Positions 20,350-26,403 are shown, counted from the first letter of the stretch. The stretch: 32,000 nucleotides of DNA from Candidatus Hermodarchaeota archaeon (GCA_048886185.1 JBHLKY010000032.1:5818-37817), one strand, 5' to 3'. Made by a program: numbers and translations. Notes: generated by a model not told the origin, from the letters alone.

Positions 20350-22782
20350 ATGATAGACTTTACCGAAACAAAAGAGAAAATAACAATCCAAGGAGATAAA
20401 CTCAAAATTGAGATATCTCAATTAACAAGGAAGGTAAAAATTTCATCTTTGATAACAAATTTCAGTCTCGATAGAATAGAACCAGCAATAAATCTTTTAA
20501 TAAATAATAAAATAATTACATTATTACCAGTAGGTAGAAGCACCAATTCAGTTATAGAAACTTTAATTTTAGATGAACTTGGAATAGGAAAACAATTTTT
20601 AATAAACCTAGTATTTAATAACACTCATGATAAGAAGAATATTACTATAGAAGCTCAATTAGCGATTATTTTATATGAAGACTCGGATTTTTGTATACTT
20701 AAACTTATTATTCCAAAGGAAGCTTCAAAATTTCTAAATTATTCATTACACTCTTTAGCACCATTAAGAATTACTGATGGAACTATAATTTTAAATGAGG
20801 AAAATAAGACTCATCCTGAGAAAATCACTTTTTTTGAACAAGGTTTTCAAAGCTGGAGCTATACAAAGACCCGTTTATTTAATGAAGCCTTCGAACCTAT
20901 ATTTATTGATGTTTTTGCATCTATCAACCAAAACAAGGATTCAATAATCACTGGACGATATATATCAGAATTTATAACTGCTATTTCTGATATAGAGAGT
21001 AAAGGAAGTTTAATCATAGGTTTTTGCACATTAGCAGACACCTACTCTCGAATTGTAATGGATCACTTAATTGGGCCATCAAAAATTTCTTGGTTAACCG
21101 CATATTCTCAGTTTGATGGCATTCCAATTAATCAATTGAAAAAACAGCCAGTTTGTTCTGAAGAATTATTCATCAGTTTTGAACCGCGTTTTCAAGGATA
21201 CTTAGGATTGATTAAATATGCTGAAGTTACAGGGAAGAAGATGAATGTAACGATCCACCAGCCCAAAGTAGGATGGTGTAGCTGGTATTATTACTATACT
21301 AATATCTCTAATAAAGAGTTGCTTTCAAATGTAAAATACTTTAAACAATCACCAGAAATCTCTGTCGATATGTTACAACTTGATGATGGATATTTCACAG
21401 CAATTGGAGATTATACTTCGTTTAATGATAAATTTTCAAATGGCCTTTCTGATTTTGTTACTTTAACCCATGAACAAGGAAAAACAGCAGGATTATGGAT
21501 TGCTCCATTTTTTGCAGCAGAAAATTCAGAAATATATAGCAAACATCCAGAATGGTTTTTAAAATCGGTAATTGATAACGAACCGTTACCTGTTTGTTAT
21601 AACTGGGATCAAACCGAATATGCTCTAGATCTTACTAATTCAGAGGTTCAAAATCACATAAAAACACTCATTCAAACTATAATAGATGAATGGCATTTTG
21701 ATTTCATAAAAATTGACTTTCTATATGCTGCTTCCGTTTTTGAAAGTGACTATCTCGTAAAGGGATTGACTCGTGCTCAGATCTATCGAAAAGGACTCGA
21801 AATAATTCGACAAAAGATGGGGAAGGAGAAATATCTATTAGGATGTGGAGCGCCTTTGGGCCCAAGCATTGGACTTGTGGATGCAATGCGTATCAGTGAA
21901 GATACTAAAGAGCTATGGGACACTGGAGAGAATCCGATATATGGGTATCCTTGTTTAAAATACGCCTTGATTGGGAGTATTAATCGTTCGTTTATGCATA
22001 ATAATTTTTGGGTTAATGATCCTGATTGTCTAATTCTACGGAAGAAAGAAAGCGAGTTAACATTTGAAGAAGTAAAACTGCAGTGCACGATTTTTGGATT
22101 AACAGGGGGCCAGCTATTATTATCAGATGATATGACAAGGCTTGAGGAGGATAGATTAAGATTAGCTTTAAAGCTAATGCCTCCTTATGCAGAATCTGCA
22201 ATCCCAATTGATACTTTATATGAATCCTTTCCCATACATTATTTGTTAGAAACAGAAACAGAAATAGGATCAAGAGCTCTCCTAGCTGTCATTAATTGGA
22301 ATAATGAAGTTGTTAATCGAAACTTAGTTTTAAAAGATATTCTCACAGCTAGCATGGGATCCTCTTCTCAATTTCTTGTTTTTGACTGGTGGCAAGAAGC
22401 ATTATTAGGATGTTTCAGTTATGAAGATTCAATTATACCTCTTGAGATCCCACCACATGGATGTCGTTATCTGGGGATCATTCCCTATGAAGATTCAACA
22501 CTACCTCTACTGCTTTCATCCACTTTGCACATTACTCAAGGATGTAAAGAGATAAAAAAGCTAAAAATAAGCTCTAATTCCATCGAACTAGGCCTTAATC
22601 AGCGAGGATTGCACACAGGGGAATTATTTTTTTTATTTCCCCAGAATACGAAAGAGATTTCAGCAGAATACCCAATGGCTAAACAATACAATGAGTGGGG
22701 AATCTTATGTCGTCTAAAAATCAGATTATTAGATCAAAAAGATATCAAAATAGAGTTTAAATCAATAGATAAAGGGGAGTAA
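20350..22782 (+). CDS. Alpha-galactosidase, GH36-like (melibiase)
   Basis: GWCSWYYY, LQLDDGY, GLWIAPF, nucleophile FIKIDF, LGCGAP, acid/base MRISED, NDPDCL. Confidence 0.93.
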   Translation: MIDFTETKEKITIQGDKLKIEISQLTRKVKISSLITNFSLDRIEPAINLLINNKIITLLPVGRSTNSVIETLILDELGIGKQFLINLVFNNTHDKKNITIEAQLAIILYEDSDFCILKLIIPKEASKFLNYSLHSLAPLRITDGTIILNEENKTHPEKITFFEQGFQSWSYTKTRLFNEAFEPIFIDVFASINQNKDSIITGRYISEFITAISDIESKGSLIIGFCTLADTYSRIVMDHLIGPSKISWLTAYSQFDGIPINQLKKQPVCSEELFISFEPRFQGYLGLIKYAEVTGKKMNVTIHQPKVGWCSWYYYYTNISNKELLSNVKYFKQSPEISVDMLQLDDGYFTAIGDYTSFNDKFSNGLSDFVTLTHEQGKTAGLWIAPFFAAENSEIYSKHPEWFLKSVIDNEPLPVCYNWDQTEYALDLTNSEVQNHIKTLIQTIIDEWHFDFIKIDFLYAASVFESDYLVKGLTRAQIYRKGLEIIRQKMGKEKYLLGCGAPLGPSIGLVDAMRISEDTKELWDTGENPIYGYPCLKYALIGSINRSFMHNNFWVNDPDCLILRKKESELTFEEVKLQCTIFGLTGGQLLLSDDMTRLEEDRLRLALKLMPPYAESAIPIDTLYESFPIHYLLETETEIGSRALLAVINWNNEVVNRNLVLKDILTASMGSSSQFLVFDWWQEALLGCFSYEDSIIPLEIPPHGCRYLGIIPYEDSTLPLLLSSTLHITQGCKEIKKLKISSNSIELGLNQRGLHTGELFFLFPQNTKEISAEYPMAKQYNEWGILCRLKIRLLDQKDIKIEFKSIDKGE

Positions 22783-23430
22783 TCGTCTGGTGCGTTTGAT
22801 ATAGGATTTATATTCATCACTAAACTCTTCTGAAAGTATTTTCTCCTCTTGATCCATTCGAGGCTTAATCAAGAGGAAACTGTAAAAAATACCCAATAAT
22901 GGTACAATCAAACTCCGAAAAGCTAATTCGGTACCAAAACCTACCATAGCTCCACCAAGATAGATTGGATGTCGAATATATCTATAAATTCCACGAGTTA
23001 CAAGCTGGTGGTCATCTTCGATAACAAGCATTCCACTGCCATATTTTCCAAGTTGAATTCGACTAAAAACCTGAATAATTCCACCAATAATTATAAAGAT
23101 GATTCCAATAACAAATACAATGATATTATTCCAAATTGGAAAATAGTCTTTGATCAGTAATTGGTTTTCGATATAAGCTAGAATAAAGATAAATGGGTTA
23201 ATTAAGAATCCAATCATCAAAAGAAGTGAGTATTTGTTGGCAATTTCTTCTTTTTCTGAGAAAGGTCTTGAGAATGAATCGATATAAGCTACAATATACA
23301 TAAGAATAATTGCTATATGACCAATATCACTGTAAATATCTGGTGAGAGAAGAATAAACCAAATATTGTAGTAAACTACATACCACAGAGTGGGAAAGCC
23401 AATTTTTCTAATAACATGAATGGGCTTCAA
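22762..23430 (-). CDS. Isoprenylcysteine carboxyl methyltransferase (ICMT/PEMT) family membrane methyltransferase
   Basis: About 5 TM segments; HQLVTRGIYRYIRHPIYLG; EEKIL...F..EY..Y...T.RLLP; TTG start with GAGGT SD. Confidence 0.92.
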   Translation of the reverse strand: MKPIHVIRKIGFPTLWYVVYYNIWFILLSPDIYSDIGHIAIILMYIVAYIDSFSRPFSEKEEIANKYSLLLMIGFLINPFIFILAYIENQLLIKDYFPIWNNIIVFVIGIIFIIIGGIIQVFSRIQLGKYGSGMLVIEDDHQLVTRGIYRYIRHPIYLGGAMVGFGTELAFRSLIVPLLGIFYSFLLIKPRMDQEEKILSEEFSDEYKSYIKRTRRLLPFIY

Positions 23431-23730
23431 TTAATAGACCTCTATAAAGGTATAATCTCAGATTAATACCTCTTAATTGAATGTTTATTTCCTATTATTA
23501 TTTTTGCGTGATAGGTAAAGCTTTTAACCTCATGAAAAAGAAACCTATCTGCATGGAGAATCCAGGAATCTCTATGCTAAAACTTGGTGTGATAAAATGA
23601 AATCTTCAATTGCTGTTGGAATGTGGTTTGAAAACAATGGCATTATTGTCACACACCCTAATTTTGCCTAAATATACAATTCTCAACTTTTCCTGGGAGT
23701 TTGAGACAGTAGAAGGAGGTTTTTACTAAG

Positions 23731-23850
23731 ATGTTCTGTGAAACTTGTGGTACAGTTCTCGATGTACACGGACAATGTGTAAATTGTGAGAAGAACAAAG
23801 AATCAAAGACTGAAATACAAGTAGACCTAAGTATAGATATAGTAGGATGA
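23731..23850 (+). CDS. 39-aa zinc-ribbon microprotein (not in the ORF track)
   Basis: Translated by hand: MFCETCGTVLDVHGQCVNCEKNKESKTEIQVDLSIDIVG; CxxC-x9-CxxC; SD AAGGAGGT at 23713-23720; stop overlaps the next ATG (ATGA). Confidence 0.85.
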   Translation: MFCETCGTVLDVHGQCVNCEKNKESKTEIQVDLSIDIVG

Positions 23851-24083
23851 GATTAGTGATGGAGAATGATCCACGGTTCTGTTCAATTTGTAATAAACTA
23901 CTATTAAAACGAGATCGATTCGGTTTTGTTTTAATAATCCGTTGTGATCAATGCAACAAATTAGTACATGATCGTTGTTATTTAGACCATCATTTAACAC
24001 GCCATAATCTCATCGGGATTATAGTCGAATCTGAAGCGAAGAAGGAACTAAGTTCTTTCCTAGAGGATATAGGAAGTCCATAA
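23847..24083 (+). CDS. Small C1/PHD-like cross-brace zinc-finger protein
   Basis: C12xxC15-x17-C33xxC36-x4-H41xxC44-x3-H48H49-x3-H53; coupled to the upstream ORF; T-rich tract after the stop. Confidence 0.8.
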   Translation: MRLVMENDPRFCSICNKLLLKRDRFGFVLIIRCDQCNKLVHDRCYLDHHLTRHNLIGIIVESEAKKELSSFLEDIGSP

Positions 24084-24209
24084 TTGGGTTCATTCTTCTT
24101 TTTGTGTAATTTCAAAACGATAAAAACATCCTTCTCACAGCACAGTATTTTCCAAAAAATAACAGACATTATGAAAAAAAAATAAGTTCGCCCTTAATGA
24201 GGACAATTT

Positions 24210-25061
24210 GTGTTAGTTATACAGATTTTTATATTGCTAGGTGCCATTATAGCTTCATATTTCATAGTAGTATTATGTATTATGCAATTTTTAGCAAATT
24301 TTCCACGAAGATCAGTAGATGATAGCCCTGATTGGGGCTTTACTAAAGATCTGAGAATTCGGACTATCAATGGAAAAAAAATGGAATGCTGGGTTGTATA
24401 CCCACAGAACAAAGAGGTAAATCATAAACCTGCGATAATTCTCATACATGGATGGGGAAGAAATAGAGGTCGCATGGTTTCTCGAGCCAGAATTTATGGC
24501 AAAAATGGATACATAACTATCTTAATTTCTGTAAGAGACCATGGAAATTCAGATAAAGAAATCACAGGCATGAGTATTGTAAGATTCAGTCAAGATCTTG
24601 ATTCTTGTGTAAGATGGTGGGGAAAACCTGTTATAATTTCTGGTCATTCAATAGGAGCTGGAGCTGCACTAATAGTAGCAGCCAAGAATCCTTTGATAAG
24701 GGCAGTGATAGCAGAAGCAACACCTTACGCTTTCCCCCATAGTCTTAAGTACGTTTATAGGCCAGTTTTAAAATGGTTAACGCCTTTATTTTTACCAGGT
24801 ATCAAGATCCTGACTCTATTCAAGTTCAGAAGTTATTCAAAAGAGGATTTTTCTCCTTTGGATGCTGCTCCATTCATTAAAGTTCCAACTCTTCTAATCC
24901 ACGGAAAAGATGATGTAATATTACCAAGTAAATATATACCTCTTCTCCAGAAAAAAATAATTGATTGTATAACCTGGATTCCTGAAAAAACAGATCATCA
25001 CAATATAGAAGAACATCCAGAGTATAAGAATAGAGTTATTAGCTTTCTTGAAGCATTATAA
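24210..25061 (+). CDS. Alpha/beta-fold serine hydrolase with N-terminal membrane anchor
   Basis: LIHGWG, nucleophile GHSIG, acid HGKDD, His in TDHHNI; GTG start with GAGGA SD. Confidence 0.92.
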   Translation: MLVIQIFILLGAIIASYFIVVLCIMQFLANFPRRSVDDSPDWGFTKDLRIRTINGKKMECWVVYPQNKEVNHKPAIILIHGWGRNRGRMVSRARIYGKNGYITILISVRDHGNSDKEITGMSIVRFSQDLDSCVRWWGKPVIISGHSIGAGAALIVAAKNPLIRAVIAEATPYAFPHSLKYVYRPVLKWLTPLFLPGIKILTLFKFRSYSKEDFSPLDAAPFIKVPTLLIHGKDDVILPSKYIPLLQKKIIDCITWIPEKTDHHNIEEHPEYKNRVISFLEAL

Positions 25062-25113
25062 ACATCGTTGCATTAGGAGTCTCTTTTAGTAATCATAAAA
25101 TGGGTATTAACTT

Positions 25114-25605
25114 ATGAGAAACAATAAATTCATTACTTGGGTCATCCCAGGAAAGCTGGCAAGAAGTCCATTTCCACTCTTCCAAGAATTATCTACATTA
25201 GTTGAACTAAACATATTTTTAGTAATCAATCTAACCTCTCAGGGAATACCAAACAGACTTGGAAATCAACTAAGGGCTTCTGGTATTAGGATTAAACGTC
25301 TGCCAATCCCTGATTTTGGCACTCCTAATCAAAACACTATCAATCAGTACCTTCAAATGGTTTGTGAAACAATACTGCAGAACCAAGCTGTTTTAACACA
25401 TTGTATTGCTGGTTGTGGACGTACAGGAACAATGATTGGATTATTCTTAATTACCCATGGATACTCTCCCCTAGTTACTCTAGAGACCATTCATAAAATA
25501 TTGGGTAAAGGGTGTCCAGAAACTGAAGAACAAATAGATCTACTTAAGCAATATAGAAAGAAATGTCCAAATTTCCGTCAGTGTAATGGTAAGATTTCAG
25601 CGTAG
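25114..25605 (+). CDS. Dual-specificity / cysteine-based protein phosphatase
   Basis: General-acid loop IPDFGTP, P-loop HCIAGCGRTG, ETEEQ. Confidence 0.93.
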   Translation: MRNNKFITWVIPGKLARSPFPLFQELSTLVELNIFLVINLTSQGIPNRLGNQLRASGIRIKRLPIPDFGTPNQNTINQYLQMVCETILQNQAVLTHCIAGCGRTGTMIGLFLITHGYSPLVTLETIHKILGKGCPETEEQIDLLKQYRKKCPNFRQCNGKISA

Positions 25606-25614
25606 GGGCAACTA

Positions 25615-26403
25615 ATGGTTATAAGGGTTCCTAATTCTCAGTTCAATTCCATATGTTATATCTTTGATGAACACCAGCACCTTAGGAACTTAATTGAAGC
25701 AATTCCTGCACTTCCAAGGGGTGAACTTTGGATTGATTCTTCAGATAATCCTTCAGTAGCTCTTTTTAAACTCCCTGGGATCCATTTTTTAGGTGGAACA
25801 CCGAATTCAAATGAAATAGAAAAAATATTAGATAAAATTCCTTCAAAACAAGCTATTTTTATTCCAACACAAGAAAAATGGATTACAATCTTAAAAAGAT
25901 ATTTTAAGGATAAATTGAGAAGTTTCGATCGATTCGCACTTTCTGCTTCATCTTTAACAATAAATCATATCCATAATCTACGAAAAGAGCTTCCTTATGG
26001 ATATCATATTAAACAAATCGATCATATAGATTGGAATCAGATAAGAACCTCAATAGGACATTATATTCATATATTTTTCAGAGACATCGAACATTTCAAG
26101 ACTTCAGGAAAAGGTTACTGTGTCAGGAATGATAATCGTGTAATCAGTATGGCTTCATCCCTAGTTCCAGTAACTAGGAGCCTTGAAATTCAAGTGGATA
26201 CAGTAGAATCAACAAAATACCTGAGGAAAGGATTTGCTACAAGAGCTGTTGTTGAACTCATAGAATATTGCTTAAAAAAAGGTATAGACCCTCATTGGGA
26301 TGCTGATACAGAAATTTCCAAAAAATTCGCCCAAAAACTTGGATATTCAAATCCCCAGCCATATAAATGCTATTATTGGGTGAAAAAGAACGAAAAAGGT
26401 TAA
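25615..26403 (+). CDS. GNAT-family acetyltransferase
   Basis: C-terminal EIQVDT...YLRKGFAT, PHWDA...S.KFAQKLGY. Confidence 0.88.
   Translation: MVIRVPNSQFNSICYIFDEHQHLRNLIEAIPALPRGELWIDSSDNPSVALFKLPGIHFLGGTPNSNEIEKILDKIPSKQAIFIPTQEKWITILKRYFKDKLRSFDRFALSASSLTINHIHNLRKELPYGYHIKQIDHIDWNQIRTSIGHYIHIFFRDIEHFKTSGKGYCVRNDNRVISMASSLVPVTRSLEIQVDTVESTKYLRKGFATRAVVELIEYCLKKGIDPHWDADTEISKKFAQKLGYSNPQPYKCYYWVKKNEKG

Follow-up and report, generated by a model that had tools for sequence, protein, structure and literature searches.

Annotation often overlooks small zinc-finger proteins, and in Asgard archaea a role is known for hardly any of them. The locus described here raises the question of whether two short, cysteine-rich open reading frames (ORFs), lying side by side on the plus strand of an archaeal contig, are genuine genes that belong together and, if so, what kinds of proteins they specify. 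The window, i.e. the whole stretch of 32,000 nucleotides that was analysed, comes from a metagenome-assembled genome (MAG) of the Hodarchaeota/Hodarchaeales (Asgard) that amounts to 4.84 Mb in 75 contigs and is 96% complete. In a preliminary description of the window, a missed 39-aa zinc-ribbon microprotein, preceded by a strong Shine–Dalgarno sequence (SD), was proposed to be translationally coupled to a stand-alone C1/PHD-like finger. The elements named in that proposal (the SD, the 39-aa ORF, and a Cys/His-rich ORF ending at 24083) are all present in the sequence.

The first ORF (23731..23850) runs from an ATG at 23731 to a TGA at 23848-23850 and encodes CxxC-x9-CxxC within 39 residues; its SD, AAGGAGGT, occupies 23713..23720, 10 nt before the ATG. 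The second ORF (23859..24083, ending in a TAA at 24081-24083) encodes 74 residues; its Cys and His residues are spaced CxxC-x17-CxxC-x4-HxxC-x3-HH-x3-H, and the C-terminal segment after them is acidic. We refer to the two products as the small and the large protein. Both ORFs are single copy in the host genome. In six-frame searches of 60 relatives, 14 of 21 congeneric species proved to have them side by side on one strand, the matches to the large ORF having E values of 1e-22 to 1e-36, and the small ORF is immediately upstream of the large gene in every one of the 14 congeners carrying the latter. Eleven residues of the small protein are invariant among 17 sequences (M1, F2, C3, C6, G7, T8, V9, L10, C16, N18, and C19), as are nine Cys and His residues of the large protein among 15 (C8, C11, C29, C32, H37, C40, H44, H45, and H49, in the numbering of the 74-aa form). 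Codon alignments give a median dN/dS of ~0.34 for the small gene and ~0.19 for the large gene, indicating purifying selection on both. Because same-strand adjacency is conserved, the Cys and His residues are invariant and dN/dS is well below 1, the two ORFs are more than a product of chance, and both are almost certainly real coding genes. The earlier claims of a real two-gene unit and of intact CxxC pairs in the small protein are therefore upheld: a search for homologues and for conserved adjacency had been suggested as a check, and all four Cys are kept in the 17 small orthologues and adjacency in the 14 congeners.

A profile of the large protein matched nothing at E ≤ 0.001 in 62 genomes representing the 17 other genera of the class, and it recovered only five true clusters from 1.84 billion representatives. 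A word-indexed profile search that included two divergent relatives returned 53 proteins at E ≤ 0.001, approximately 44 of which are close relatives and nine of which fall into a separate group of 80-aa proteins (see below). Nearly all named records among these matches are Hodarchaeota or Hodarchaeales MAGs, and one orthologue belongs to Ca. Hodarchaeum mangrovi. Neither gene is found in five congeners; hence, the unit is dispensable. The locus occurs in eight public DNA or contig data sets, from sediment, estuary, and soil samples, and in no RNA data set among the public runs listed. The description of the small ORF as ‘missed’ is true of the host, whose exact 39-aa sequence was not found in a public collection of 15 billion proteins, but not of its orthologues elsewhere, which have been annotated as hypothetical proteins; the same collection holds one under the name ‘hypothetical protein’ (MFX1283089.1) and two without a name.

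The junction between the two genes had been described as an ATGA, in which the TGA of the small ORF overlaps the ATG of a 78-aa Cys/His protein. There is indeed an in-frame ATG at 23847 that overlaps the stop codon in this manner and opens a 78-aa form ending at 24083, and a further ATG, at 23859, opens the 74-aa form. Matches to orthologues start at residue 4-5 of the 78-aa form. All orthologues begin at the Met equivalent to ATG 23859, and of the two forms the public collection contains only that of 74 aa. Translation of the large gene therefore most likely starts at the conserved ATG 23859, which leaves a spacer of 8 nt (23851..23858), and the overlapping ATGA at 23847 is probably coincidental in the host genome. 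Compared with the 8 nt seen here, six species have a stop-to-start spacer of 9 nt, two have one of 6 nt, and one has 14 nt; four species have a true ATGA (−4), and in one the overlap is −35, the small ORF having lost its stop. In six species, the small-ORF stop is directly followed by GGTGA, which we take to match part of the canonical SD GGAGGTGA, and in 8 of 15 species both ORFs lie in one common frame, split by a single stop and 6-9 nt. A separate promoter could not be accommodated in such short spacers, and their lengths fit coupled translation or re-initiation; that the two genes are co-transcribed and coupled is very probable. What stands of the ATGA claim is, accordingly, a tight and conserved adjacency that fits translational coupling, whereas the ATGA itself is probably not the conserved junction in the host.

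Several loci depart from the common gene structure. At L009:1682-1843 (genome G017), the small ORF lacks its usual stop and reaches a length of 54 aa, and it shares 35 nt, read in a different frame, with the large gene. Non-ATG starts at conserved positions were recorded at L015:172-312 (G020), L017:1702-1827 (G011), and L018:888-1145 (G006); the small ORF uses TTG and GTG in two species, and the large ORF uses TTG in one. Two candidates for natural fusions of the small and large proteins were rejected. The 115-aa protein P0003 (L044:678-1025) is an artefact of a gene call that took TGA as Trp, the DNA reading ...GGT TGA GGT GAA ATG ATG..., with an in-frame stop; the 123-aa protein P0045 belongs to the same ENA series and probably arose in the same way.

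The region preceding the small ORF is conserved in an alignment of 16 leaders. It begins with a nearly invariant box, ATTATTGTCACACA (23642..23655), a probable promoter or operator element, after which come a T/A-rich, TATA-like stretch (23659-23676) and an inverted repeat (23681..23706) that forms an 8-bp stem with a bulged U at 23702 and the loop UUUCCUGGG and that ends 6 nt upstream of the SD. The GGAGGT of the SD is invariant in the 16 leaders and in most lies 11 nt upstream of the start codon; taken alone, the hexamer shows no enrichment in the window. In the repeat, 95.3% of the alignment cells are paired, a share that falls to 50.8% or less if the partners are shifted by 1-3 columns; compensatory changes have occurred in four of the eight stem pairs, with 17 cells changed on both sides; 0 of 500 shuffles reached the observed paired share or covariation score; and RNAalifold agrees on the outer stem. 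Four stem cells are G.U pairs, which form only in sense-strand RNA; we therefore infer that the repeat is probably a hairpin in the mRNA leader and not a protein operator. If the T-rich stretch contains a TATA box, transcription would start near the hairpin loop. Taken by itself, the leader of the host locus is not unusually stable (z = 0.66), so the argument for the hairpin is one from covariation only. The box motif and the hairpin motif each occur once in the 4.84-Mb genome, and an Rfam search of 23300-24300 returned nothing near a gathering score. The covarying stem-loop and the invariant upstream box ahead of the unit are newly described here. We also considered and rejected a third upstream peptide read through the leader (M-A-L-L-S-H...): there the nucleotide sequence is what is conserved, several species show a shift of frame, and the stop is not at a fixed position. 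At the other end of the unit, a T-rich tract (24093..24105) follows the stop of the large gene and probably represents an archaeal oligo-T terminator, at which transcription would end after the large gene; T runs within ~25 nt of the large-gene stop are found at the host locus and at 7 of 14 orthologous loci.

The two genes are not strictly interdependent. Two congeners, G001 and G016 (94% and 90% complete, respectively), keep the small ORF together with the box, the hairpin, and the SD, while the large gene was undetected. Their lone small ORFs (L033 and L034) differ by a dN of 0.067 and a dS of 0.248, as expected under purifying selection, and no shared ORF representing a remnant of the large gene was found downstream of them, with a faint ‘NHIGFIP’ likeness in one of the two genomes. 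Conversely, there is no ribbon ORF upstream of a divergent large-type protein, P0007 (locus L046). The occurrence of the small ORF alone in G001 and G016 and of large-type genes alone at L046 and at L021 (described below) makes an obligate pair less likely. Co-modelling of the large and small proteins with three Zn scored 0.00 in both runs, a result on which the tool gives no verdict and which is evidence neither way.

Outside close relatives, the neighbours of the pair differ, and only the two genes and their leader are constantly found together. Downstream in the window (24210-26403) are closely spaced genes for an alpha/beta hydrolase, a dual-specificity phosphatase-like protein, and a GNAT_acetyltran protein, which look like a separate conserved block; only in the nearest relatives (L052, L053, and L055) do they lie behind the pair. 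Upstream, the stretch 20350-23430 carries a plus-strand gene for an 810-aa melibiase/GH31-type TIM-barrel protein and a minus-strand gene for an ICMT/PEMT-family membrane methyltransferase, which overlaps the 3′ end of the former by ~20 nt. A conserved neighbourhood of lipid- or protein-modifying enzymes was considered and rejected, as the enzyme block is confined to the closest relatives and conservation upstream does not include the ICMT-like gene.

Within the small protein, conservation is concentrated in the N-terminus (MFC..CGTVL) and the second knuckle (C.NC), and the acidic tail is variable: pN/pS is 0.31 for the ribbon half and 0.89 for the tail. The nearest Pfam model is DZR (PF12773), which matches 16 of 17 members and scores 19.9 bits, below its cut-off of 27.3; NCBIfam, and PHROGs for the small ORF, gave noise-level matches only. 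As a proxy for the pair, an AlphaFold2 read-through model of P0003 (pTM 0.41) was available, in which the ribbon part has a pLDDT of ~79 and the small-protein tail and the linker are below 50. It had been suggested that the tail (VDLSIDIV) could add a beta-strand to a partner. This idea is not supported: the tail is the least constrained part of the protein, has been swapped for an unrelated sequence in one clade, and is modelled as disordered, forming no strand in the read-through model.

The closest analogues of the small protein that we can name are haloarchaeal. Like HVO_0758, HVO_2753, and Brz, it is archaeal, shorter than 70 aa, and built of two Cys knuckles (one of them CxxCG) with no other domain, and like C(P)XCG microproteins generally, its function is unpredictable from sequence and such proteins are often missed in annotation (PMC11241148, PMC6562870, PMC10716476, PMC2253796). 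Deletion of haloarchaeal C(P)XCG microproteins alters motility, biofilm formation, or gene expression (PMC6562870, PMC10716476, PMC11241148, PMC2253796). In the 39-aa protein the first motif, CETCG, fits this class, and the second, CVNCE, lacks the Gly, a variation in the second motif that has been accepted for the class (PMC11241148). Since the class is defined by motif and not by homology, the likeness is one of motif only; moreover, the small protein, unlike the haloarchaeal microproteins, comes from a conserved pair of cistrons, of which its own is the first, preceded by a covarying hairpin in the leader.

For the large protein, the AlphaFold2 model (pLDDT 74, pTM 0.55) comprises a beta-hairpin at residues 26-37 bearing C29/C32 and a single continuous helix at 38-48, whose start bears H37/C40 and whose end bears H44/45/H49. 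Since all four ligands of one site could not come from one straight helix, interleaved (cross-brace) zinc sites are favoured. The predicted site 1 would combine C8/C11 with H37/C40 as a treble clef, and the predicted site 2 would combine C29/C32 with H44/45 and H49 in the C2H2-like spacing C-x2-C-x12-H-x3-H. Structure searches retrieved RING, FYVE, PHD, C1, and prokaryotic-RING domains only, with PHD, RING, and FYVE domains in the top Foldseek and VIA-align rows. All of these matches are weak (Z 2.0-3.0, Foldseek E ≥ 0.17, TM 0.4-0.5; no Foldseek match against the PDB at E ≤ 0.001), as is expected for ~45 ordered residues. With four invariant ligand pairs in cross-brace order, a predicted hairpin and helix, and structure matches of this low score, we file the large protein as a probable compact variant of the two-zinc cross-brace fingers and not as a member of the C1 or PHD families.

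A comparable ligand layout occurs outside the genus. The protein at L021:1516-1761 (G051, another genus of the class) and proteins P0073-P0080 are ~80 aa in length with the pattern CxxC-x16-CxxC-x4-HxxC-x3-H-x3-H; they resemble the large protein in their compact arrangement at ~22-28% identity, and no ribbon ORF lies upstream of them. Stand-alone C4HC-H2 fingers may, therefore, be spread more widely in Heimdallarchaeia. In the ESM Atlas, the nearest neighbours by language-model features and shape are clusters of 80-96-aa proteins from bacteria (Nitrospirota, Chloroflexota) and Nitrososphaerota, one of which was automatically named a phorbol-ester/DAG-type domain protein; we regard these as leads only.

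Could the large protein instead be a true C1 domain, homologous to the DAG/phorbol-ester module and concerned with membrane-lipid targeting, the small ribbon being an accessory? C1_1 (PF00130) is its best Pfam match, for 15 of 15 members at E ≤ 0.01 and with 28.8-29.0 bits, just above the gathering cut-off of 26.5; a profile search of solved structures places the C1 domains of STAC3 and PKC theta/delta first (E 0.003-0.03); and in one public MAG record an orthologue goes under the name ‘C1 domain-containing protein’. Common to the large protein and the C1 domains of PKC, STAC, and Munc13 are the core CxxC-(loop)-CxxC-x4-HxxC, the P-x-F-C lead-in, and two expected zinc sites. The P-x-F-C before the first knuckle presumably resembles that of PKC C1B in particular, and, as a lead only, the Q-G pair that we take to precede the third Cys of PKC C1B is absent from the large protein, which has L-I-I-R-C there. 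The C1_1 match, however, spans only profile positions 10-46 of 53, and both ends of the ligand set are missing: no His occurs among the seven residues before the first Cys in 15 members, where C1 has its N-terminal His (H-x12-C), and no Cys follows C40 in 15 aligned members, where C1 has its C-terminal Cys (HxxC-x7-C), the positions after HxxC being taken by H44, H45, and H49 instead. The loop between the knuckles is 17 residues long, not 13-14, and the protein differs from eukaryotic C1 domains in standing alone, with 74 aa and an acidic tail, in a family limited to one archaeal genus. Finally, C1 is described as a circular permutant of the RING-like fold at the second zinc site (PMC4506424), whereas the ligand pairs of the large protein follow the unpermuted order found in PHD. 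Taken together, these differences render a true C1 domain highly improbable. A different account, in which the large protein is a PHD/RING-type interaction finger (a peptide reader or an E3-like adaptor) acting alone and the small ORF is unrelated and merely on the same transcript, has the ligand order in its favour: the first six ligands, with ‘CD.C...H..C’, follow the C4HC order of PHD, the pairs are interleaved, a beta-hairpin is followed by a helix as in PHD and other cross-brace domains, 14 of 15 members match PHD (PF00628; best E 9e-5), and PHD, RING, and FYVE lead the structural rows. That each gene can occur without the other also accords with independent action. Nevertheless, PHD ranks second in Pfam with 21.3 bits, short of the cut-off of 24; the final CxxC pair of PHD is missing, being replaced by two His on the one helix, 3-4 residues past ligand 6; the order C4HC is not the C3HC4 of RING; ubiquitin-system or chromatin genes are not conserved nearby; and adjacency to the small ORF is held in 14 of 14 congeners with the large gene. 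We consider this account unlikely. As for the preliminary label of a stand-alone C1/PHD-like finger, the likeness is real insofar as the C1_1 score exceeds its cut-off and all 15 members match, but membership is not, given the missing first His and last Cys of C1 and the missing last CxxC of PHD. A metagenomic relative, P0004, has a Cys at position 48.

The remaining alternatives concern the relation between the genes rather than the fold. Patchiness within the genus (14 of 21 species), a variable genomic neighbourhood, tightly coupled or overlapping genes, and an inverted repeat beside a promoter-like region would all suit a selfish or accessory cassette of the toxin–antitoxin type, in which the small first product neutralises the second and represses a palindromic promoter region. 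Against such a cassette, PADLOC found no defence-system match for the unit, neither toxins nor antitoxins turned up among the Pfam and NCBIfam families, G.U pairs are tolerated in the repeat and so point to RNA rather than to an operator, the unit is single copy, and the would-be antitoxin is alone in two species and the would-be toxin alone at L046; we judge this explanation very improbable. The small ORF might alternatively serve mainly as a translated leader (uORF) that gates ribosome access to the large gene, in which case its peptide would be functionless. The very short stop-to-start distances, the structured leader upstream, and the almost neutral C-terminal half of the peptide agree with this notion, but a functionless peptide is at odds with the eleven invariant residues of the N-terminal ribbon and its pN/pS of 0.31, and a gate is hard to reconcile with purifying selection on the small ORF and leader where there is no detectable large gene (the L033/L034 comparison above). 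The likelihood of a mere uORF is, in our estimation, slight.

We therefore favour, as a probable explanation, a lineage-specific two-gene operon of zinc-binding microproteins in the Hodarchaeales genus that includes Ca. Hodarchaeum mangrovi. A promoter region of its own and a structured 5′ leader would precede this operon, which would probably also have a terminator to itself. Its first gene, with a strong SD, would yield a 39-aa single zinc ribbon holding one Zn via C3, C6, C16, and C19; its second gene, starting 8 nt past the first stop, would most likely be translated by coupling or re-initiation to give a 74-aa compact two-zinc finger with an acidic tail. Both products would be zinc-stabilised binding modules, acting as regulatory or adaptor microproteins. 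The claim that the pair lacks a catalytic domain is sustained, in that none fits in 39 or 74 residues and no enzyme family was matched; by analogy with the haloarchaeal C(P)XCG microproteins, a role as a non-catalytic binder is probable for both. The two proteins may bind each other, a suggestion that we put forward with some doubt.

It is less likely still, indeed unlikely, that the proteins act on their own leader stem-loop or promoter in an autoregulatory manner. This guess derives from a hairpin that is private to the locus, weak matches to Com, and the Com label given by JGI, which names two large-protein orthologues ‘phage FluMu protein Com’. In phage Mu, the zinc-finger protein Com binds a hairpin in an mRNA leader and activates translation, and the unit likewise has a conserved hairpin in its own leader. 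The profile phrog_13819 (gpCom) weakly matches 6 of 15 large-protein members over the two CxxC knuckles (E 0.0055-0.007), and Pfam scans at E up to 1 and up to 0.01 found no Com family for the large protein. Com has one C4 site, whereas the large protein has nine invariant Cys and His residues. Very doubtful is a further reading, in which the large protein is an archaeal, unpermuted relative of the eukaryotic C1/PHD group of two-zinc fingers that Hodarchaeales have retained and that works with its co-translated ribbon partner as a two-subunit reader or regulator, possibly with feedback on the leader hairpin.

The C4HC-H2 ligand pattern of the large protein sits between those of C1, PHD, and C2H2 fingers. 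If its likeness to C1 and PHD reflected common descent, it would bear on when eukaryote-type cross-brace fingers arose, although restriction to one genus makes such descent unlikely; and if the two-subunit reader existed, a cross-brace finger of the signalling or chromatin type would have a dedicated partner in the archaeal lineage reported closest to eukaryotes. We know of no genetic tools for the Hodarchaeales lineage. With two microproteins under selection, a fixed gene order, and a private covarying leader hairpin, the unit is testable. This genus-restricted, dispensable operon, with its covarying leader and products of unusual ligand pattern, merits testing at the bench and is not a major surprise. 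Should the proteins prove to bind each other or their own leader, they would constitute a simple regulatory module in this Hodarchaeales lineage.
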